A stretch of DNA of 64,000 nucleotides from the NCBI GenBank assembly GCA_028715785.1, contig JAQURC010000001.1:204766-268765 (forward strand), read 5' to 3'. The notes below the pieces were generated by a model, which was given only the letters and a program-made list of their open reading frames with translations, made no database searches and was not told the origin of the DNA. This stretch comes from Candidatus Omnitrophota bacterium. Lineage in GTDB: Bacteria; Omnitrophota; Gorgyraeia; Gygaellales; Profunditerraquicolaceae. How positions within the stretch are numbered: position 1 is the stretch's first letter; the number at the start of each line of letters is the position of its first letter. Both the position numbers and the translations under genes were made by a program. This document shows positions 5,689-62,885 of the stretch, one piece after another.

Positions 5689-5764
5689 TCCCCCTTAGCT
5701 CAGTTGGTAGAGCGAGAGACTGTTAATCTCCAGGTCCTAGGTTCGAGTCCTAGAGGGGGAGCCA
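5689..5764 (+). tRNA. tRNA-Asn (anticodon GTT)
   Basis: Cloverleaf with acceptor TCCCCCT/AGGGGGA, anticodon loop CUGUUAA, T-loop GTTCGAGTC and an encoded CCA. Confidence 0.9.
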
Positions 5765-24992: not shown

Positions 24993-25065
24993 CTCCATCT
25001 GCTTTCCGCAAAAGCTGGAAATTTTATGAAATAGCATATATTATTAGCGGGTGGCAAGCCTTGGG

Positions 25066-25205
25066 CTCGAACAGCATCTCAAAAATTCGAGCGGGCAAGG
25101 TTCCGCCGAAGGCGGAGAGCAAGAATTTTTGCCGAAGCGAAGATTTTCCACGCTGGGGAAAATCGAGCGGTGCTGCGAGAGACAAGGCTTGACAGGACCC
25201 GCGTA
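25066..25205 (+). repeat. structured intergenic repeat, copy A of a three-copy family
   Basis: Shares the core GAGCGGGCA-GGTT…GCCGAAGCG-AG…GCTGGGG…GGTGCTGCGAGA-ACAAGGC with 41703-41840 and 57411-57553. Confidence 0.6.
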
Positions 25206-25293
25206 AAGTATTAAATTTCCCTTTAAAATTTACAGCTTTATCCCTCCATTTTCTTTTGACATAACCCTAAATCTACTATATAATTACTAAACT

Positions 25294-26787
25294 ATGGACA
25301 TTAATGAGATTATTCAGCAAAGAATTGCCAAATTAGGGGCGCTTAAAGCTAAAAATGTGCCTTTATACCCTGCCAATGTGCCTTTACATTTAACTATTGG
25401 TGAGGCCTTGGCTAATTTTGAAGAAGGTAAAAAGGTTACTCTTTGCGGCAGGGTTATGGCTAACCGCGGCCACGGTAAGGTCAATTTTATGGACCTGCGG
25501 GATGCCACCGGCAAGATCCAGCTTTATGTCAAAAGGGATATTATCGGAGAAGAAAAAGCCGCGCTTCTTGAGCAGTTGGATATTGCCGATATCATCAGCG
25601 CAAGTGGAGAGCTTTTTAAAACCCACACCGGTGAATTCACGCTCAAGGTCGAAGATTTTAACATCTTATCCAAGGCCCTGCGGCCTTTACCTGAAAAATG
25701 GCATGGTTTAAAAGACGTTGAACTGCGTTATAGGCAGCGTTACCTGGATTTGCTTTCCAATGAAGAGGTAAAAAAAGTATTTTTGTTGCGGGCAAAGATC
25801 ATCCGGGCTATCCGTAATTTTCTCGACGAGCGAGGTTTCCTGGAGGTTGAGACTCCGATGATGCATGATATCCCGGGGGGCGCCGCCGGAAGGCCTTTTA
25901 AGACCTTCCATAACGAATACGGAATGGATTTATTTTTAAGGATTGCCCCGGAGCTTTATTTAAAACGGCTTCTGGTGGGCGGGCTTGACCGGGTCTATGA
26001 GATTAACCGCTCTTTTCGCAATGAAGGCGTATCCACGCGGCATAATCCGGAGTTTACGATGCTGGAGGTTTATCAGGCCTACACTGATTGCGAAGGGATG
26101 ATCAATTTAACGCAGGATTTAATTTGCCATATCGCCAAAGAGGTTTTAGGCAAAGAGGAGCTGGTTTATCAGGGTAAGATCCTTAGCCTCAAAGTTCCCT
26201 GGGCCCGGCAGTCATTCGCCCAATTGGTTAAGGATAAGTTTGGAATAGAGCCGCAAGATGATGCGGCTAAAATGCTTAATAAATTACAGGCAAAGGGATA
26301 TGCTTCGGATAAGGACCGCCTGAGCCGCTCTCAAATAAATAAAATTGTTGAGGACGCCCTGGAGCAGGAGCTGCAAGCCAATCCGGTTTTCATTACGGAT
26401 TATTTTACCAGCCTTTGTCCTTTGGCCAAGGTTAATAAAGATAACCCGTTGATTTCAGAGAGGTTTGAGCTCTACGTCGCGGGGATGGAGATTGCCAATG
26501 CTTATTCTGAGTTGAATGACCCCTTGGAACAGCGCCGGCGTTTTGAAGAAGAGATTAATGACCTTGCATCCGAAGAAAATAAGTTAGAGAATAATGGTTT
26601 GGCTTCCAATAGCCAAAGCCAGAAAAACGTGGATAATGATTATCTTTTAGCCTTAGAGCACGGTATGCCTCCGGCAGGAGGATTGGGCATCGGCATTGAC
26701 CGGCTGCTGATGTTATTTACGGACCAGGCCTCAATCAGGGATGTAATTTTATTTCCTTTGCTGCGGCCGGTGGAAGAGGTAATATGA
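25294..26787 (+). CDS. lysS: lysine-tRNA ligase (class II)
   Basis: Class II aaRS motifs, OB-fold N-domain and GGLGIGIDRL motif 3. Confidence 0.9.
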   Translation: MDINEIIQQRIAKLGALKAKNVPLYPANVPLHLTIGEALANFEEGKKVTLCGRVMANRGHGKVNFMDLRDATGKIQLYVKRDIIGEEKAALLEQLDIADIISASGELFKTHTGEFTLKVEDFNILSKALRPLPEKWHGLKDVELRYRQRYLDLLSNEEVKKVFLLRAKIIRAIRNFLDERGFLEVETPMMHDIPGGAAGRPFKTFHNEYGMDLFLRIAPELYLKRLLVGGLDRVYEINRSFRNEGVSTRHNPEFTMLEVYQAYTDCEGMINLTQDLICHIAKEVLGKEELVYQGKILSLKVPWARQSFAQLVKDKFGIEPQDDAAKMLNKLQAKGYASDKDRLSRSQINKIVEDALEQELQANPVFITDYFTSLCPLAKVNKDNPLISERFELYVAGMEIANAYSELNDPLEQRRRFEEEINDLASEENKLENNGLASNSQSQKNVDNDYLLALEHGMPPAGGLGIGIDRLLMLFTDQASIRDVILFPLLRPVEEVI

Positions 26788-40269: not shown

Positions 40270-41682
40270 ATGCCTATTTTCATATATAATTCCCTCACAA
40301 GAAAAAAAGAAGAATTTGTCCCCTTAAAGCCAAAAGAGATTAAGATGTATGTCTGCGGCCCTACGGTTTATGATCAGCCGCATATTGGGCATGCCCGTAG
40401 CGCATATATCTTTGATGTGATCAGAAAGCATTTAATATACAGAGGATACAAGGTTAAATTTGTCAGGAATGTAACTGATGTCGATGATAAGATTATCGAT
40501 AAGGCGCAAAAAGAATTTAAGGGAGAGGACCTAAACGCAGCGGTTAAAAAGGTTTCTACCAAATACCTGGACATTTATCATGAAGATATGAAAAGCTTAG
40601 GCATCCTTGATCCGGACGTTGAACCCAGGGCAACCGAGTATGTCAGCCAAGAAAATCCTTTAATGCAGAAATTTATCGGCCAGCTTATTAATAAGGGCTG
40701 CGCTTATGTTTCTGAAGGCGATGTGTATTTTGATATCAAAAAAGCAAAGGATTATGGTAAATTATCTAACCAGGCGATAGAAAAAATGGAAGCAGGGGCA
40801 AGGATTGGCCTGGGTGAAAAAAAGAGAGACCCGCTTGATTTTGCTTTATGGAAGGCAGCTAAATCCGGAGAGCCTGCCTGGGACAGCCCCTGGGGAAAAG
40901 GCAGGCCTGGTTGGCATATCGAGTGCTCCGTAATGAGTTCGGATATCTTAGGGGATGAATTTGATATCCACGGCGGCGGCCTGGATCTTATTTTTCCTCA
41001 CCATGAAAACGAAATTGCCCAATCTGAAGCTGCGGGTAATAAATTTGCCCGCTACTGGATACATCACGGTTTACTTACTATTAATGGTCAGAAAATGGCT
41101 AAATCTTTAGGTAATTTTATTACCATAAAGGATTTTCTGGGTGAATATAAAGACGCAGATATTTTAAAATTATTCTTTTTATCCACGCATTATTTACATC
41201 CTATAGATTATAACGATAAAAAAATCGAAGAAATAAAACAAGCGCTGGACAGGATTTTAAATTTTTCCTGGAAAGCTCGTGATATATCTTATTTTGGAGC
41301 TTCTGTTAGTAATGAGATCGAAGAAATTAATGTAATCAAGAATGAGTTTGTGGAAGCCATGGATGACAATTTTAATACGCCACAAGCCATATCTTGTATA
41401 TTTAATCTAGTAAATTTGGCTTATAAAAATATGGATAACGCTGTTTTTGTTAAAACAGCTGAATACGCCTTAGTAGAATTTTCCACAATCCTAGGCCTTT
41501 CACCTGCAAAATTACAACTTCTTAACGTAGATTACGAAATTGAGTCTAAGATTCTTGAAAGAAATAAGGCGCGTAAAGAAAGGAATTTTGCTTTAGCAGA
41601 TAAGATAAGAAAAGAATTGGAAGGAAAAGGGGTCATATTAGAAGACAAGAATGATAAAACAATCTGGCGTAGAAAATTGTAG
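40270..41682 (+). CDS. cysS: cysteine-tRNA ligase
   Basis: HIGH motif as HIGHARS, KMSKS motif as KMAKS and zinc-binding cysteines. Confidence 0.9.
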   Translation: MPIFIYNSLTRKKEEFVPLKPKEIKMYVCGPTVYDQPHIGHARSAYIFDVIRKHLIYRGYKVKFVRNVTDVDDKIIDKAQKEFKGEDLNAAVKKVSTKYLDIYHEDMKSLGILDPDVEPRATEYVSQENPLMQKFIGQLINKGCAYVSEGDVYFDIKKAKDYGKLSNQAIEKMEAGARIGLGEKKRDPLDFALWKAAKSGEPAWDSPWGKGRPGWHIECSVMSSDILGDEFDIHGGGLDLIFPHHENEIAQSEAAGNKFARYWIHHGLLTINGQKMAKSLGNFITIKDFLGEYKDADILKLFFLSTHYLHPIDYNDKKIEEIKQALDRILNFSWKARDISYFGASVSNEIEEINVIKNEFVEAMDDNFNTPQAISCIFNLVNLAYKNMDNAVFVKTAEYALVEFSTILGLSPAKLQLLNVDYEIESKILERNKARKERNFALADKIRKELEGKGVILEDKNDKTIWRRKL

Positions 41683-41702
41683 TGCCTGACTTGGTTTGTT
41701 TC

Positions 41703-41840
41703 GGAGCGCACGTGAGAATTTTGCGCGGGCACGGTTGCCCTTGATAAATGTCTCGGCAGAGCGCAAAATTCTGGCCGAGCGAAGATTTTCCACTCTGGGG
41801 AAAATCGAGCGGTGCGCGGAGAAACAAAACAAGGCAGACG
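41703..41840 (+). repeat. structured intergenic repeat, copy B
   Basis: Core conserved with copies A and C. Left stem GCGCA…TGCGC, where copy A has GCTCGAA…TTCGAGC. Confidence 0.6.
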
Positions 41841-41859
41841 CTGGAGGGAAGATTGAGAT

Positions 41860-46512: not shown

Positions 46513-47684
46513 GAATAAAAGGGGACGGTTCTATCAGACGGTTTTATGAAGAAGAGAACCGTCCCCTTTATTCTAAAGTTTCCGTGGTTAAATGCGCCGG
46601 TTATGAACCGGCAGGCGTTGAGCTGGCGGTAAGGAATACAGTTAATCTCTTGGGCGGGATTACTAATTTTATTAAACCCGGCTCACGCGTATTGGTCAAG
46701 CCTAATCTTTTGATGTCTAAAGGGCCGGAGTGCGCTATTACCACTCATCCCGAAGTAGTCAGGGCGGTCATTCATATATTAAAGGAAATAAACTGCCAGG
46801 TTATTGCCGGCGACGGCCCGAGCGTCTGGGGTAAGTATATTGAAAATGTGGACCAGGTATATGATCTAACCGGCATAAGAAAAGTTTGCCGGGAGGAGGA
46901 TGTGCGCCTGGTTACTTTTGATAAACGCAGGATGCGCGCAAAATTTCCGCTGACAACCTGGCTTGATGAATGCGATCATTTGATCAGCCTGCCTAAATTT
47001 AAAACCCATGAGTTTACTTTGCTTACCGGAGCAATCAAGAATCTTTTTGGCCTGGTCTCCGGAACTTACAAAACCGAGCTGCATAAGGATTATTTTGAGC
47101 CGCCTGAATTTGCCAAGATCCTGGTGGATATATATCAGGAGGCCAGGCCCGCCCTGACGATTATCGACGGGATATTAGCCATGGAAGGGGATGGCCCGGC
47201 AACCAGCGGAAAACTTCGTGCGCTTGGCCTTTTATTAGGCGGTGCGGATTGCGTGGCTCTGGATACGGTGATGGCCAAAATTATGGGGATTAGCAATCAG
47301 GAGGTTTTAGCGACAAAAGAGGCAGCCCGGCGCGGCTTAGGGGAAAATCAGCTTAGCCGGATCAAGATCGAGGGAGAGGATATTGATAAATTAAATATCC
47401 GGCCGTTTATCCTTCCGGTAAATTCGGTAAAAATAAATAAGCTGCCGCTGGCGGTTAAAAAGATACTTAAAAGCCTGATCAGGTATTATCCTTATTGCCT
47501 GGATCCAAAATGCATCCACTGCGGCCGCTGCGTTAAAGTTTGCCCGCGCCAGTGTATTCGTCTTTCCGCCCGCATTCATTTTGATTATAAAAAATGTATT
47601 GCCTGTTTCTGCTGCCAGGAGAGCTGTCCGGAAGCAGCCATCGGCGTAAAGAAGAGTATCCTGGCTAAAATTATAGGACTATAA
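46509..47684 (+). CDS. DUF362 domain protein with C-terminal 4Fe-4S ferredoxin domain; N-terminus uncertain because a REP hairpin occupies codons 4-20
   Basis: DUF362 consensus begins near SKVSVVKC. Two CxxCxxCxxxCP clusters. Alternative GTG start near 46577. Confidence 0.55.
   Translation: MRIKGDGSIRRFYEEENRPLYSKVSVVKCAGYEPAGVELAVRNTVNLLGGITNFIKPGSRVLVKPNLLMSKGPECAITTHPEVVRAVIHILKEINCQVIAGDGPSVWGKYIENVDQVYDLTGIRKVCREEDVRLVTFDKRRMRAKFPLTTWLDECDHLISLPKFKTHEFTLLTGAIKNLFGLVSGTYKTELHKDYFEPPEFAKILVDIYQEARPALTIIDGILAMEGDGPATSGKLRALGLLLGGADCVALDTVMAKIMGISNQEVLATKEAARRGLGENQLSRIKIEGEDIDKLNIRPFILPVNSVKINKLPLAVKKILKSLIRYYPYCLDPKCIHCGRCVKVCPRQCIRLSARIHFDYKKCIACFCCQESCPEAAIGVKKSILAKIIGL
46521..46566 (+). 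repeat. REP-like palindrome (variant copy)
   Basis: GGGGACGGTTCTATC…AGAACCGTCCCC. Arms identical to the REPs flanking the transposase at 51960. Confidence 0.6.
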
Positions 47685-50752: not shown

Positions 50753-51852
50753 GTTACCGGCCCACCTGGGCAGAGGTCAACCTGAATAATTTAGAACATA
50801 ATTTCAAAGAGGTTAAAGCTCTCCTTGAGCCCCGGACAAAAATCCTGGTTACCGTAAAAGCCGATGCTTACGGCCATGGGTTGGTCCCCGTCGCCAAGAG
50901 ATTGTCCGCCTGCGGCGCGGATTATTTAGGGGTTGCTTCTATTGATGAAGGGATAAAATTAAGAAAGGCAGGCATAAAAACACCCGTCTTGCTCCTTGGC
51001 CTGATCCTGAAAAAAGATATCCGGCCGCTTTTTACCTATTGCTTTACTCCGACGGTTTGCGATCAAGAAATGGCTTCTGCCATTGACACTATGGCCGCTA
51101 AGCTAAAAAAGAAAATAAGCTTACATATAAAAGTGGATACCGGCATGGGCAGGATCGGAGTTTTGCCTGATGGCGCGTTTAAATTAGCCAAAGATATACA
51201 TAAGCTTAAGCACGTCAGGATTGAAGGTATTTTTACGCATTTTGCCTTTGCGGATCTTGACCGCAAGTTTACCGATTATCAAGTCAATTTATTTGAGAAG
51301 CTGGTGGGTGATTTAAAGAAAAGCGGTATCGTTATCCCCCTGGTGCACGCCGCTAACAGCATCGGCTTGATCGACTACAAAGACAGCCATTTTACCATGG
51401 TCAGGCCGGGTCTGGTCATCTATGGCTTGTATCCTAAAGAGCGGCTGCGCATAAAATTAAAACCCGTTTTAAGTTTAAAGACCCGGATTATTTTTATTAA
51501 ACGTGTCCCCGCAGGCACCGGCATAAGTTACGGCCGCACTTATATAACTAAACGGCCAAGCCGCATTGTTACTTTGCCTATTGGTTACGGCGACGGTTAT
51601 CCGCGCAACCTTTCCAATTTAGCCTGGCTTTTGATCGGAGGCAGGAGATTCCGCGTCGCCGGCCGGATTTGTATGGATCAGATCATGGTTGATATCGGCA
51701 ATTTCAGGCCGAAGGTCGGCGATGAAGTTGTCTTAATCGGAGAGCAGGGCAGGCAGAAAATTACCGTTGAAGAGCTTGCTGAATTATCCGGCACCATTCC
51801 TTATGAGATTGTCTGCGGTTTAGGCAGCCGCATCCCCCGAATTTATAAATAA
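50731..51852 (+). CDS. alr: alanine racemase
   Basis: PLP-binding lysine motif VTVKADAYGHG. Confidence 0.85.
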   Translation: MPDKDKIGYRPTWAEVNLNNLEHNFKEVKALLEPRTKILVTVKADAYGHGLVPVAKRLSACGADYLGVASIDEGIKLRKAGIKTPVLLLGLILKKDIRPLFTYCFTPTVCDQEMASAIDTMAAKLKKKISLHIKVDTGMGRIGVLPDGAFKLAKDIHKLKHVRIEGIFTHFAFADLDRKFTDYQVNLFEKLVGDLKKSGIVIPLVHAANSIGLIDYKDSHFTMVRPGLVIYGLYPKERLRIKLKPVLSLKTRIIFIKRVPAGTGISYGRTYITKRPSRIVTLPIGYGDGYPRNLSNLAWLLIGGRRFRVAGRICMDQIMVDIGNFRPKVGDEVVLIGEQGRQKITVEELAELSGTIPYEIVCGLGSRIPRIYK

Positions 51853-51853
51853 A

Positions 51854-51899
51854 GGGGACGGTTCTATCTTTCAAAAAAACGCTTGATAGAACCGTCCCC
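51854..51899 (+). repeat. REP palindrome (left flank of the transposase)
   Basis: GGGGACGGTTCTATCTTTCAAAAAAACGCTTGATAGAACCGTCCCC, a perfect 15-bp stem. Confidence 0.7.
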
Positions 51900-51959
51900 T
51901 CTTTATTTTAGTTAGATTCTCTCTTCTTTTGCGTCAATTGTAGTAAAAGGAGGGTTTTT

Positions 51960-52514
51960 ATGCCTAGGGCTAAACGGATAATTCCAGAAAATTCGGCTTT
52001 ACATGTTATCAGTAGGGGCAACAACCAAAATATTATATTCCATAGTGATAATGATAAACTACGCTACTATACGCTATTACGAAGCCTAAAAGAGGAGAAT
52101 AAAATCGATATTTTTCATTATTGCTTGATGAATACCCATATTCATATCATTTTAAATCTTAATCCAGATAGTGCTTTATCAAGATTCATGAAGCAGTTAA
52201 ATTTGACTTACTTTCATTATTACCGAAAAAAGTATGGTTATTTTGGCCATTTTTGGCAGGACAGATTTAAGAGTAATATTATCGATACGGATTCGTACCT
52301 GTTGCAATGTGGTAAATATATTGAACTTAATCCTGTCCGCGCAGGTATGGTGAATTACCCAGGAGAGTATTCATTTTCGAGTTATAATTATTATGCCAAT
52401 AATAAACCGGATGAGCTTATTACTTTAAGCCCGGCATATCTTGGATTATCAGATTCTGCTAAAATAAGACAAGAGCAATATGTTAATTTTGTGGTTGATA
52501 GCAATATAATATAA
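51960..52514 (+). CDS. REP-associated tyrosine transposase (IS200/IS605-like Y1 HuH transposase)
   Basis: HuH motif NTHIHII and C-terminal YIELNPVRAGMV, typical of these transposases. Flanked by identical REPs. Confidence 0.8.
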   Translation: MPRAKRIIPENSALHVISRGNNQNIIFHSDNDKLRYYTLLRSLKEENKIDIFHYCLMNTHIHIILNLNPDSALSRFMKQLNLTYFHYYRKKYGYFGHFWQDRFKSNIIDTDSYLLQCGKYIELNPVRAGMVNYPGEYSFSSYNYYANNKPDELITLSPAYLGLSDSAKIRQEQYVNFVVDSNII

Positions 52515-52520
52515 AATCTA

Positions 52521-52566
52521 GGGGACGGTTCTATCTTTCAAAAAAACGCTTGATAGAACCGTCCCC
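52521..52566 (+). repeat. REP palindrome (right flank of the transposase), identical to 51854-51899
   Basis: Same 46-nt sequence in direct orientation. Confidence 0.7.
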
Positions 52567-52575
52567 TACCTAGAT

Positions 52576-57384: not shown

Positions 57385-57410
57385 AGTTATATTTACGGGT
57401 GACGAGACTT

Positions 57411-57553
57411 GATTCGAGCAGCATCTCAAAAATTTGAGCGGGCATGGTTGCCCACAATAAATGTTTCGGCAGAGCGAAAATTTTTGCCGAAGCGCAGCGA
57501 GCCACGCTGGGGCGAGCAAGCGGTGCTGCGAGAACAAGGCTCGGCAGGACCCG
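57411..57553 (+). repeat. structured intergenic repeat, copy C
   Basis: Left half matches copy A almost exactly. Middle matches copy B. Confidence 0.6.
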
Positions 57554-57565
57554 TAAATAATATAT

Positions 57566-58915
57566 ATGATGAGCAAAATTTACTTAGCCTCTAAATCCAA
57601 AGCCAGGAAGAAGCTGTTAGAGAAATTCGGCCTGAAGTTTAAAGTCCTTTCCTCTAAAATTAAAGAGAATGACCGGCGCGGAAATTTATCCTACGCGCAA
57701 TTAGTTAAAAATAACGCGCGCGACAAGGCCAGAGAAGTTGCCGGCAGGGTAAAAGAGGGTATTATTATTGCCGCCGATACGATCTGCGTGCAGGATGGGA
57801 AAATATTCGGCAAGCCCAAAAACATACGCGTTGCCCGGATTATGCTTAAGAAATTATCGAGTGCGCCGCAATGGCTTTATACCGGCCTGGCAGTTATAAA
57901 AAAAGATAAGGGCAAAGATCGAATCGCCATTGACTATGAGAAAACAAAAGTTTATATGGATCAATTAAGCGATAGAGAGATCAATAATTATTTCAAGCAG
58001 GTTTCTCCTTTGGATAAAGCGGGGAGTTTTGACATTCAAGGCAAGGGGGCATTTTTTATCAAGAAGATAGACGGTTGTTTCTATAATGTCGTCGGCCTGC
58101 CTTTGCGGAAACTTTATCGTATTTTTCAGAAACTGGGGGTGTTGTCTTTAATTTGTTTTGCCTGGGCGCTCTCCGGCTGTTCCACCGAGTATAATCTTGC
58201 CACCAAACAGGAGGAAAAATATTACTACAGCACGGATAAGGAAGTAGCTATGGGCCAGGCGATCAACCGCCAGGTGGAGAAGGAATTAAAATTTTCCAAC
58301 GACCCTTTACAGAAGAAACGCGTAGAGGATATCGGCAAAAAAATAGCCGCGGTAAGCGACAGGAAAGAGATCGATTACTATTTTCAGGTTTTGGATGATG
58401 ATACGGTAAATGCCGTTTCTTTGCCCGGAGGCTATGTCTATGTCAACAGCGGATTATTGGATAAGGTTTCCAGCGATGATGAACTGGCCTGCGTTTTGGC
58501 GCACGAGGTAGGCCATATCGTCGCCCGGCACAGTATCAAAAAACTCCAGGCAATGCAAAGTTATTCCATATTAAGATTGTTAGTGGCTGTAACTCCTGCT
58601 CCCGGAACAGGGGAAGTAGGCTCTGCCGCGGATGCCGCTTTTTTGCAATTTCTTCTGGGTTACAGCCGCGAGGATGAGCTGCTGGCGGACCAATTGGGTG
58701 CCCGCTACGCTAAATTGGCAGGTTATGACCCGCACGGCATGATCACTTTTCTGACCAGGCTGCAGGATATAAACCGCAGGATGCCGCTTAAGGAGCGTTC
58801 CTATTTTAAAACCCACCCCTATGTGCCTGACAGGATCAGGGTAGTTAAGCAGGAACTGGGGGAGCAAATCAGCTTCGGGGATTATATCAACATTGAACAA
58901 GAAACTCACAAATAA
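57566..58915 (+). CDS. maf: Maf nucleotide pyrophosphatase (residues 1-191) joined in frame to a lipoprotein M48 zinc peptidase (from GTG 58139)
   Basis: Maf N-terminus IYLASKSKARKKLL. Then signal peptide VLSLICFAWALSGC and the HEVGHIVARH motif. No stop codon lies between them. Confidence 0.6.
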   Translation: MMSKIYLASKSKARKKLLEKFGLKFKVLSSKIKENDRRGNLSYAQLVKNNARDKAREVAGRVKEGIIIAADTICVQDGKIFGKPKNIRVARIMLKKLSSAPQWLYTGLAVIKKDKGKDRIAIDYEKTKVYMDQLSDREINNYFKQVSPLDKAGSFDIQGKGAFFIKKIDGCFYNVVGLPLRKLYRIFQKLGVLSLICFAWALSGCSTEYNLATKQEEKYYYSTDKEVAMGQAINRQVEKELKFSNDPLQKKRVEDIGKKIAAVSDRKEIDYYFQVLDDDTVNAVSLPGGYVYVNSGLLDKVSSDDELACVLAHEVGHIVARHSIKKLQAMQSYSILRLLVAVTPAPGTGEVGSAADAAFLQFLLGYSREDELLADQLGARYAKLAGYDPHGMITFLTRLQDINRRMPLKERSYFKTHPYVPDRIRVVKQELGEQISFGDYINIEQETHK

Positions 58916-60851: not shown

Positions 60852-60935
60852 ATGGTGCGGGAGGAGGGAGTTGAACCCTCAAGGGTTGCCCCACACGCTT
60901 CTGAGACGTGCGCGTCTGCCATTCCGCCACCCCCG
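60852..60935 (-). tRNA. tRNA-Leu (anticodon CAG), type II with long variable arm
   Basis: Acceptor GCGGGGG, anticodon loop CUCAGAA, long variable arm and an encoded CCA. Confidence 0.85.
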
Positions 60936-61060
60936 CAAAAATCAGATTAAGTATATCTTAGCGCAATACTCCTGTCAATTAGTTATCAATTCCGGTTATA
61001 AATGAATTGCGGCAAGGATTTTTTGCTGTTATAATAATAATTTACTAAAGAGGAGAAATA

Positions 61061-62474: not shown

Positions 62475-62885
62475 GGGGGTGAAAGGGTTCGACTTAAGAT
62501 ATGTCGGATAAAAGCAGCATGCCGCGGACGCATGGTTAGCCGCGTTAATAACCCGTGCACAATATAAACGCAAACACAAACACGCAAGTGTTCAATCGCT
62601 TAGCGCCAAAAACAGCAATGTTTTTAGCGCCTGTAGCGGGCGTACCAGCCTTCGGACTTCATTAAGTCCGAAGCCTCTAACCGTCTACGCCTACGGGACG
62701 GATTAGGGCCTTAGTAGGATAGCTCCGGTGGTTGCCTTTGAAGCCGGAGCGAAATTTAAAAGGCTGCTCCTTGCAAATCCTGCCATGTAGAAGTTGCAAG
62801 GTTAAGATAAATTACAAGGCTAAGCATGTAGCGGCTTTTATTTGATTACTTAAGGACGGCGGTCCGATTCCGCCCACCTCCACCA
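62475..62885 (+). ncRNA. ssrA: transfer-messenger RNA (tmRNA)
   Basis: 5' GGGGGTGAAAGGGTTCGAC pairs with the 3' CACCTCC-A-CCA end, including a G3:U wobble. T-arm GGCGGTCCGATTCCGCC. Lies directly after smpB. Confidence 0.85.

Follow-up and report, generated by a model that had tools for sequence, protein, structure and literature searches.

Three intergenic segments in the genome of a Candidatus Omnitrophota bacterium resemble each other, and the question they raise is whether they serve the genes beside them or are copies of a dispersed element. The window, by which we mean the whole 64-kb stretch of DNA that was analysed, had been read once before from its sequence, and that earlier note offered several roles for the segments, among them cis-acting leaders of lysS, tmk and maf, terminators and a REP-like dispersed element.

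Results

Three copies of a repeat in the window

The three plus-strand segments that the earlier note had grouped by a common conserved core were recovered, and nothing else in the window, in a search with a covariance model of the family, R1, at E up to 1; each match has an E-value of 1e-38 or lower. The model was built from 53 family members and contains 170 positions and 41 pairs. We refer to the family as F1 and to its copies in the window as A, B and C, see Table 1. The copies in the window are 163-170 nt long, and the unit of the family as a whole 165-170 nt; the copies are real, and their 5' ends lie some 20 nt further out than had been proposed. None of 200 shuffles was as stable as the real copies (z-scores in Table 1 are against dinucleotide shuffles).

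All three copies are intergenic, run on the same strand as their neighbouring genes and are located just upstream of a gene. Copy A is found 51 nt after the stop of an M48 peptidase gene (24992) and 87 nt before the ATG of lysS (25294). The 5' end of copy B falls within the stop codon of cysS (TAG, 41680-41682) and its 3' end is 11 nt before the ATG of tmk (41860), while copy C is separated by 7 nt both from the stop of a gene for an HI0933-like FAD protein (57384) and from the ATG of a maf-M48 fusion gene (57566). The distances to the next start codon are therefore 87, 11 and 7 nt, and not 40-90 nt as first estimated.

Some other features of the window should be mentioned. Between copy A and the lysS start there is a perfect TTGACA-17-TATAAT promoter, ending 9 nt before the ATG and kept in three relatives, and the lysS transcript is probably almost leaderless. 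In the gene downstream of copy C, a Maf and an M48 peptidase domain are fused into one protein of 449 aa, a fusion that is kept in more than 100 Omnitrophota protein clusters (77-95% identity). The window also contains a tmRNA gene (175.8 bits) that adjoins smpB, and two tRNA genes.

Table 1. Positions of the F1 copies, their structural parts and other features in the window and in related loci (L numbers).
Feature	Sequence	Position	Strand	Remarks
F1 copy A	window	25044-25206	+	R1 153.4 bits, full length; MFE -73 kcal/mol, z -5.7
F1 copy B	window	41679-41848	+	R1 138.0 bits; MFE -70.9 kcal/mol, z -4.4
F1 copy C	window	57392-57558	+	R1 156.4 bits; MFE -76.9 kcal/mol, z -6.5
P1 5' arm, copy A	window	25044-25077	+	UUAGCGGGUG-GCAAGCCUUG-..CUCGAACAGCAU; pairs with 3' arm
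P1 5' arm, copy B	window	41679-41711	+	
P1 5' arm, copy C	window	57392-57424	+	
P1 3' arm, copy A	window	25169-25206	+	asymmetric bulge (GA)CAGGA before ACCCGC
P1 3' arm, copy B	window	41811-41848	+	
P1 3' arm, copy C	window	57522-57558	+	
P2 domain, copy A	window	25079-25133	+	A/U helix CAAAAAUUC / GAAUUUUUG
Invariant P2 loop, copy A	window	25093-25101	+	GGGCAAGGU
P2a, copy A	window	25102-25116	+	hairpin of variable length and sequence
P3 domain, copy A	window	25137-25168	+	GC/GC base, GAA/GA internal loop, stem GAUUUUCC/GGAAAAUC, loop ACGCUGG
P3 domain, copy B	window	41779-41810	+	
P3 domain, copy C	window	57492-57521	+	
Proposed pseudoknot, copy A	window	25095-25097 with 25152-25154	+	GGC (P2 loop) with GCU (P3 loop)
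Possible F2-like remnant	window	~24999-25030		just upstream of copy A
lysS promoter	window	25256-25296		
Maf-M48 fusion gene	window	57566-58915		
tmRNA	window	62475-62885		
tRNA	window	5689-5761		
tRNA	window	60856-60936	-	
RAYT-like ORF	window	51960-52514	+	184 aa
RAYT-D1 unit	window	51847-52567		721 bp
D1 hairpin	window	46514-46572		
D1 hairpin	window	51847-51903		
D1 hairpin	window	52512-52567		
D1 hairpin	L286	8940-8990		site A
D1 hairpin	L279	9905-9985		site C
Inverted F1	L276	3023-3197		site C; core matches R1 on - (129.6 bits)
F1 upstream of crcB	L055	3120-3285		
F1 upstream of crcB	L003	54-220		
F1 upstream of crcB	L041	1122-1291		
F1-ended element	L084	1262-1303		
F1-ended element	L081	4413-4498		
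F1-ended element	L054	7049-7115		
F1-ended element	L057	4212-4304		
F1-ended element	L063	5146-5238		
F1-ended element	L050	1115-1215		
F1-ended element	L061	5568-5671		
F1-ended element	L066	939-1025		
F2 copy	L019	4894-5067		
F2 copy	L002	5921-6097		
F2 copy	L039	205-388		
F2 copy	L043	1445-1625		
F2 copy	L036	637-812		
F2 copy	L014	3770-3937		
F2 copy	L284	9762-9939		opposite strand
F2 copy	L075	3494-3659		
Further family	L079	4450-4693		CGAGCGAAUG...UGAGCGAGAA motifs

The fold of F1

The two ends of F1 form an interrupted closing stem of about 35 bp, P1, which opens into a three-way junction with the P2 and P3 domains. The consensus of the 5' arm of P1 is UUUAGCGGGU-G-GCGAGGCUUG..UUCGAGCAGCAUC and that of the 3' arm is GGUGCUGCGAGA.CAAGNCUCG-(G/A)CAGGA-CCCGCUAAA. 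P1 is asymmetric in the entire family: one G in the 5' strand faces CAGGA in the 3' strand, with GGGUG versus CAGGACCC. In P2, the A/U helix is followed by either tandem G.A/A.G or two Watson-Crick pairs and then by a GC/GC step; in the internal loop an invariant GGGCAYGGU faces GA, and a GAGC block is also present in this domain of copy A. The P3 stem is 7-8 bp long, and its sequence varies by subfamily with the pairing kept (in copy C with a tandem G.A/A.G in the middle of the stem), while its loop ACGCUGG is invariant. Five unpaired blocks are near-invariant, GCGGGCAYGGU, GAGCG, GAAGCG, the loop ACGCUGG and RAGCGGUGC, and together the core contains about 40 such nucleotides.

Covariation was counted in 85 aligned matches, using a model-fitted alignment that by construction favours the structure. 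Standard pairs occupy 93.9% of the paired cells, versus 37-47% when the partners are slid by 1-3 columns, and 36 of the 44 pairs are changed on both sides, a number that none of 500 column shuffles reached. By domain, this holds for 19 of the 21 pairs in helices 1-3 (P1) and for 10 of the 11 pairs in helices 4, 5 and 7 (P2). An alignment made with MAFFT agrees, with 29 of 41 pairs compensated. F1 is thus a structured family with compensatory changes and not a decaying duplicate, as the earlier note had argued.

The helices on which that argument was built fared less well, as two of the three cited as covarying were mis-assigned and only P3 was correct. P3 is the GAUUUUCC/GGAAAAUC hairpin that copies A and B have in common, and 5 of its 7 pairs covary. 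The proposed left helix (GCTCGAA/TTCGAGC in A, GCGCA/TGCGC in B) joins non-homologous columns, and its covariation among 53 sequences does not exceed that of shuffles. In the GGGCA-NGGT-TGCCC hairpin described for B and C, GGGCA belongs to an invariant unpaired block; GGGCA and UGCCC can pair in 81% of the cells and never covary. Instead, UGCC is the 5' strand of P2a and has its partner GGCA further downstream, with strong covariation. The CCGCC-GAA-GGCGG hairpin of copy A does exist and is a short P2a, which means that its homologue in B and C is UGCC...GGCA and not the GGGCA hairpin; a relative of 92% identity has a long P2a at the same site.

From the sequence comparison we tentatively propose a 3-bp loop-loop pseudoknot between the P2 and P3 loops. 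Its cells are paired in 98.7% of cases, a number that covers three pairs and few events and in which the P3 loop of most copies was fixed by the seed pattern. All three copies with GCGGCCA have the P3 loop CGGUGG, a single-sided change is found in no copy, and one U-to-C change (G.U to G-C) and one C-to-U change (C-G to U.G) both keep the pairing.

The two strands of F1 are not equivalent. G.U outnumbers A.C in the paired columns by 84 to 18, and the element strand is more stable than its complement in all 78 full-length copies (mean fold energy -81.2 versus -69.9 kcal/mol, p 1.7e-14). Taken together, the G.U excess and the predicted stabilities argue that what is selected in F1 is a single folded strand, of RNA or of single-stranded DNA, rather than a double-stranded site.

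Distribution of the family

Each GTDB species was represented by one genome and searched with an exact pattern derived from the 3' half of F1. Of the 74 loci obtained, almost all carry the label Candidatus Omnitrophota, often with several in one genome, and four are chance matches in coding DNA of other phyla. In 70 of the loci, which come from 42 Omnitrophota assemblies, R1 identifies 84 copies, all of them intergenic. The seed pattern is missing in 14 of the 84, which are extra copies within the same 8-kb loci. The genomes span 45% to 73% GC, and F1 is conserved across all of this range.

R1 has no match in 1.1 Mb of control DNA, made up of 418 kb of metagenomic cysS loci (most probably from other phyla) and 720 kb of viral contigs. 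The strict pattern is also absent from the viral contigs, and a looser one hits 80 chance loci there, none of which matches the covariance model.

The comparison with Rfam that had been suggested as a check gives no family for F1. At the gathering threshold, Rfam 15 finds only the tmRNA and the two tRNAs in the window; it has no match in the region of copy A even at E up to 10, and in 14 related loci it reports a single TPP riboswitch, located elsewhere. No Rfam 15 model for a riboswitch, T-box, leader, ribozyme, sRNA, 6S RNA, Y RNA or HEARO matches F1. K-turn, hammerhead, twister-sister and retron ncRNA were compared by eye and rejected, as their defining motifs are missing or wrongly ordered. 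In the literature, we found no account of such elements in Omnitrophota. F1 is a real, previously undescribed structured repeat that is specific to Candidatus Omnitrophota.

Orientation and neighbouring genes

For the 84 copies, flanking genes were assigned as ORFs by a simple longest-ORF rule. Upstream genes are on the same strand as F1 in 34 cases versus 39 on the opposite one, downstream genes in 36 versus 40, and about half of the copies are antisense to both neighbours. The neighbours are diverse, unrelated housekeeping genes, and neither transposases nor reverse transcriptases are enriched among the proteins next to the 84 copies. The orientation does not significantly follow the local GC skew either (44 of 79), a weak test given that the skew follows gene strand at this scale. 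The median spacer is about 86 nt on the 5' side and about 16 nt on the 3' side, and many copies start 0-7 nt after the upstream stop and end 7-20 nt before a start codon.

The information content of the 70 nt upstream of 78 copies reveals no promoter signal at a fixed distance beyond the end of the element itself. The words CTCGCTC and TTCGCTCG are enriched upstream and at first resembled a motif, but they belong to partner repeats on the reverse strand. When copies A, B and C were scanned for promoters and terminators, the lysS promoter downstream of A was the one result apart from weak sites at chance level. The flanks of F1 are arranged as U-rich, stem, A-rich, i.e. in the reverse order of a terminator. 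An intrinsic terminator, one of the roles suggested earlier, can be discarded, as no U-tract follows the stem and nothing on the element strand of the three copies in the window resembles a terminator.

In three species F1 is located 4-10 nt upstream of crcB and in the same orientation, a spot where a fluoride riboswitch is usually expected.

Variable sites in close relatives

Contigs of relatives were found via homologues of the Maf-M48 and LysS proteins. At site C, between the HI0933-like gene and maf, F1 is on the plus strand in the window and in a relative with 95% Maf identity (L275). At 92% identity, one relative (L276) has the core on the opposite strand next to a left arm identical to that of the window, and another (L283) is empty, with the stop codon overlapping the ATG. 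In two contigs at 91% (L277 and L278) F1 is reduced to its outer right arm, which has been joined to the upstream ORF by a deletion between two ATCAAG repeats (microhomology). The site is filled by a nested D1 hairpin doublet, see below, in L279 and L280 (88%) and is empty in L281 and L282 (84%). In the inverted copy of L276 the core is reverse-complemented and the right arm is the complement of a 5'-arm type. This is not the product of a single crossover in the arms; by analogy, the inversion resembles the flip/flop of hairpin ends.

Site A, between M48 and lysS, contains F1(+) in the window and an orthologous copy, also F1(+), in L285 (LysS identity 92%). A different 180-nt repeat, F2, takes its place on the opposite strand in L284 (94%), and a single D1 hairpin in L286 (86%). 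The lysS promoter is kept in all four, downstream of whichever repeat fills the spacer. Between cysS and tmk, F1 is present in the window as well as in L011, L007 and L032; L084 and L081 have elements of 42 and 86 nt with F1-type termini there, L075 has an F1 stump plus F2, and in L076, L078, L082 and L083 the spacer measures 0-60 nt.

Within one genome, F1 copies at different loci can be 96% identical, and truncated copies as well as a partial duplicate that includes flanking sequence were found (L016, L067, L069). Several sites are occupied even in species that share just 55-67% identity in the flanking proteins, and F1 is there more conserved than the proteins. Between close relatives, F1 is thus gained, lost, inverted, truncated and replaced by other repeats.

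These sites bear directly on the idea that F1 is a cis-acting RNA of its host operons, i.e. a leader, riboswitch or attenuator of the downstream gene or a terminator or stabiliser of the upstream one. The copies in the window are all co-oriented with their neighbours just upstream of genes, at site A F1 sits where a relative has the terminator-like D1, upstream of the conserved lysS promoter, and stabilisation of 3' ends by its long stems would be conceivable in either orientation. However, the antisense copies make up about half of the family, the downstream genes have no common function, relatives have maf and lysS without F1 or with an inverted one, and there is neither a U-tract nor an Rfam match. 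A cis-acting leader, as proposed for lysS, tmk and maf, is excluded because the orientation is random and the site is variable in relatives at lysS and empty, inverted or deleted at maf. F1 as a control region for these three genes is thus ruled out, and a cis-acting function in general is largely refuted as the primary role and very improbable.

The same sites speak to mobilisation through RNA, in which F1 would be a SINE- or retrozyme-like element, maybe with a self-cleaving or self-ligating core, copied by a reverse transcriptase encoded elsewhere. A strand-specific fold inserted in random orientation would fit an RNA intermediate, P1 brings the 5' and 3' ends together, the 3' flank is A-rich, and the invariant nucleotides centred on the junction and the loop-loop contact resemble small ribozymes in style. 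Yet two of the changes at site C, the inverted core flanked by unchanged arms in L276 and the deletion by microhomology in L277 and L278, are events at the DNA level, no copy has a reverse transcriptase beside it, and no ribozyme or intron family of Rfam matches at E up to 10. We consider this route quite improbable.

Modular ends and partner repeats

The terminal module of F1, UAGCGGGUG(R)C...CAGGACCCGCUA, is not confined to this family: it is found around at least eight different interiors, of 42-104 nt. These F1-ended elements (Table 1) have the terminal stem and the CAGGA bulge in common with F1. Further families with CGAGCGAAUG...UGAGCGAGAA motifs occur upstream of L070, L001, L005 and L030, and in L079.

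In 16 head-to-head doublets F1 faces a close neighbour 5'-to-5' at a distance of 0-70 nt. The partner is another F1 subfamily in six doublets, F2 in eight (of 14 F2 copies found) and an element with the F1 terminal module in two; tail-to-tail arrangement was seen in one case only. The simplest idea for this rule would be an insertion preference beside the 5' flank of another element.

Besides F1 there is another structured family, F2, whose repeats measure about 180 nt and are usually found head-to-head with F1. It is characterised by inverted ends of its own (CTAGAAGATTTCCG...) and by a conserved core (GTGCAAGGAGTTACGACGAG...GAGTCGTAAACCGCAGCACACGGCGAAAATTTTC), without a match in Rfam. The D1 hairpins form a REP-like family that is terminator-shaped (A-rich, stem, U-rich), and in relatives they fill the same spacers, sites A and C, that hold F1 in the window.

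Could F1 copies instead be genes for independently expressed, trans-acting structured RNAs with a cellular function, such as RNP scaffolds or protein sponges? This would account for the deep conservation, the covariation, the invariant loops, the probable pseudoknot and the strand-specific stability, and the same intergenic sites are reused across distant species. The longer spacer on the 5' side (about 86 versus 16 nt) would also leave room for a promoter. However, there is no conserved -35/-10 at a fixed upstream distance and no terminator, many copies are packed tightly against stop and start codons, and head-to-head partners, at 0-35 nt, are too close for promoters. Copies are moreover truncated, inverted, deleted or replaced in close relatives, and the termini are common to simple hairpins. 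On balance this explanation is unlikely.

Comparison with known systems

F1 works most like REP/REPIN, ERIC or BOX, and its size, architecture and linkage place it outside these families. Of the roles offered in the earlier note, the evidence favours the REP-like dispersed element. REP/REPIN are recognised as a folded single strand, and like them F1 is extragenic, multi-copy and found in both orientations and in inverted doublets. It is an imperfect palindrome with conserved bulges, persists vertically for long with its sequence conserved across species, has no clear target duplication, and a RAYT-like gene is present in the same window. The differences are that F1 has 165-170 nt with a three-way junction and invariant loops, while a REP hairpin has 20-40 nt; that it lacks an unpaired GTAG-like 5' tetranucleotide, as its UUAG/UUUG/UUUA covaries with the 3' end and is therefore paired; and that its doublets join different families, always 5'-to-5'.

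The RAYT-like ORF of the window encodes a Y1 transposase (Pfam Y1_Tnp, E 1.8e-16) that comes closest to the model for REP-associated tyrosine transposases (NCBIfam REP_Tyr_transpos, 63.3 bits, which is below the model cut-off of 80). Both its flanks are occupied by D1, a hairpin with a 16-bp stem (AGGGGACGGTTCTATC...GATAGAACCGTCCCCT), and not by F1, and because of this the protein is at best a relative of the enzyme that mobilises F1. The RAYT-D1 unit is found at the same spot in L277 and is absent from L275, L279, L281 and L283. A RAYT gene flanked by F1 copies, the arrangement by which REP/REPIN-RAYT systems are recognised, does not occur in the window, and in the 8-kb pieces of the 70 loci no transposase is located between or beside F1 ends.

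ERIC/IRU, BOX and Correia (NEMIS) elements are, as F1, intergenic imperfect palindromes of 100-200 nt in usually transcribed DNA, in both orientations and without a linked transposase, and compensatory changes suggest selection on their structure. BOX is in addition similar in its modularity, with conserved ends and variable interiors. All of them come from other phyla, lack sequence similarity to F1 and are essentially linear hairpins, whereas F1 has a branched core, ~40 near-invariant unpaired nucleotides, a probable pseudoknot and strong strand asymmetry.

With the IS200/IS605 PATEs, F1 shares a strand-specific fold with G.T pairs and bulges and an orientation independent of genes. However, IS200/IS605 have two separate subterminal hairpins on one strand while F1 is one global hairpin, and no Y1 or Rep gene is linked to F1, though Y1 genes are present in these genomes. 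The 5' flank of F1 is often TTTAC or TTTAG, but this stretch is paired with the 3' end. The branched (T/Y-shaped) hairpin, the repeated GAGC/AGCG motifs and the flip-like core inversion of L276 recall HUH-moved and parvoviral termini; parvovirus hairpin termini are T-shaped and bear GAGC repeats, and the likeness to F1 is one of analogy.

Finally, F1 is similar to the MITEs of DDE transposons (e.g. IS630/Tc1) in size, presence/absence polymorphism, nested insertions and terminal inverted repeats, the first 10 nt being identical at both ends (UUUAGCGGGU / ACCCGCUAAA termini). It is often flanked by TA on both sides (copy C, L007, L081, L084, L276). MITEs of the IS630/Tc1 type have a TA target duplication, and a duplication would not keep pairing; in L054, L041 and L045 the flanks are TG...CA instead, with the pairing kept. 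A target-site duplication of F1 is not established, the empty sites in L283 and L281 being too diverged to place the junctions. F1 further differs from MITEs in that its ends are made unequal by a conserved 4-nt indel and are thus not equivalent double-stranded sites, in that no autonomous partner was found in the 8-kb pieces of the 70 loci, and in its conserved and covarying interior. To our knowledge, no described REP or MITE is as elaborate as the core of F1.

Discussion

We suggest that F1 is a non-autonomous, mobile, REP/MITE-like palindromic repeat in which the single-strand fold is the selected unit, and we put the probability of this at roughly 0.6. The fold would be conserved as the substrate of a trans-acting enzyme that copies F1. 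We favour a route in which an HUH/Y1-type transposase acts on single-stranded DNA, as with REP/REPIN and the ends of IS200/IS605, because the two ends keep their asymmetry, the direction of transcription makes no difference to the orientation, there is no evident duplication and Y1 genes exist in these genomes. The conservation across the phylum would then mean that the repeats have long lived together with the enzyme that mobilises them, and not that they serve the genes beside them. Any influence on these genes, such as stabilisation of RNA 3' ends, insulation or occlusion of start sites, would be a by-product.

Against a mobile repeat, F1 is linked to no transposase, its housekeeping neighbours are not enriched in transposases, a target-site duplication is not established, and its copies are absent from the viral contigs searched. 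At several sites that are also occupied in more distant species, F1 is moreover better conserved than the proteins that flank it. Further, the elaborate junction, the invariant loops and the probable pseudoknot are what is expected of a functional RNA. A TA-duplicating DDE transposase, an RNA intermediate or a cellular RNA function are possible alternative routes, the last two mainly because the core is elaborate.

It can also be speculated, although we find it doubtful, that the branched fold of F1, with its three-way junction, loop-loop pseudoknot and GAGCG-type motifs, represents a new class among nucleic acids and serves an Omnitrophota enzyme as its specific substrate or cofactor, and that together with F2 and the P1a-closed elements it makes up a multi-family replicator system throughout the phylum. 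By analogy, the fold might then be a T-shaped single-stranded DNA hairpin that is processed by an HUH nuclease with flip/flop inversion; another possibility is a catalytic or protein-scaffolding RNA. If true, this would be a previously unseen replicator system of families that dock 5'-to-5'.

Taken as a mobile repeat, F1 is unusual among bacterial interspersed repeats, as it combines clear mobility with RNA-like structural conservation (36 covarying pairs). It provides a test case for intragenomic replicators kept by a dedicated enzyme versus recruitment as functional RNAs. Its covariance model marks Omnitrophota contigs and also explains many conserved structures between genes that might be taken for riboswitches or leaders. 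The Omnitrophota are uncultured, ultra-small and probably host-dependent bacteria with compact genomes, a phylum without genetics. That their short spacers are colonised by several elaborately folded repeat families gives a handle on the dynamics of these genomes.
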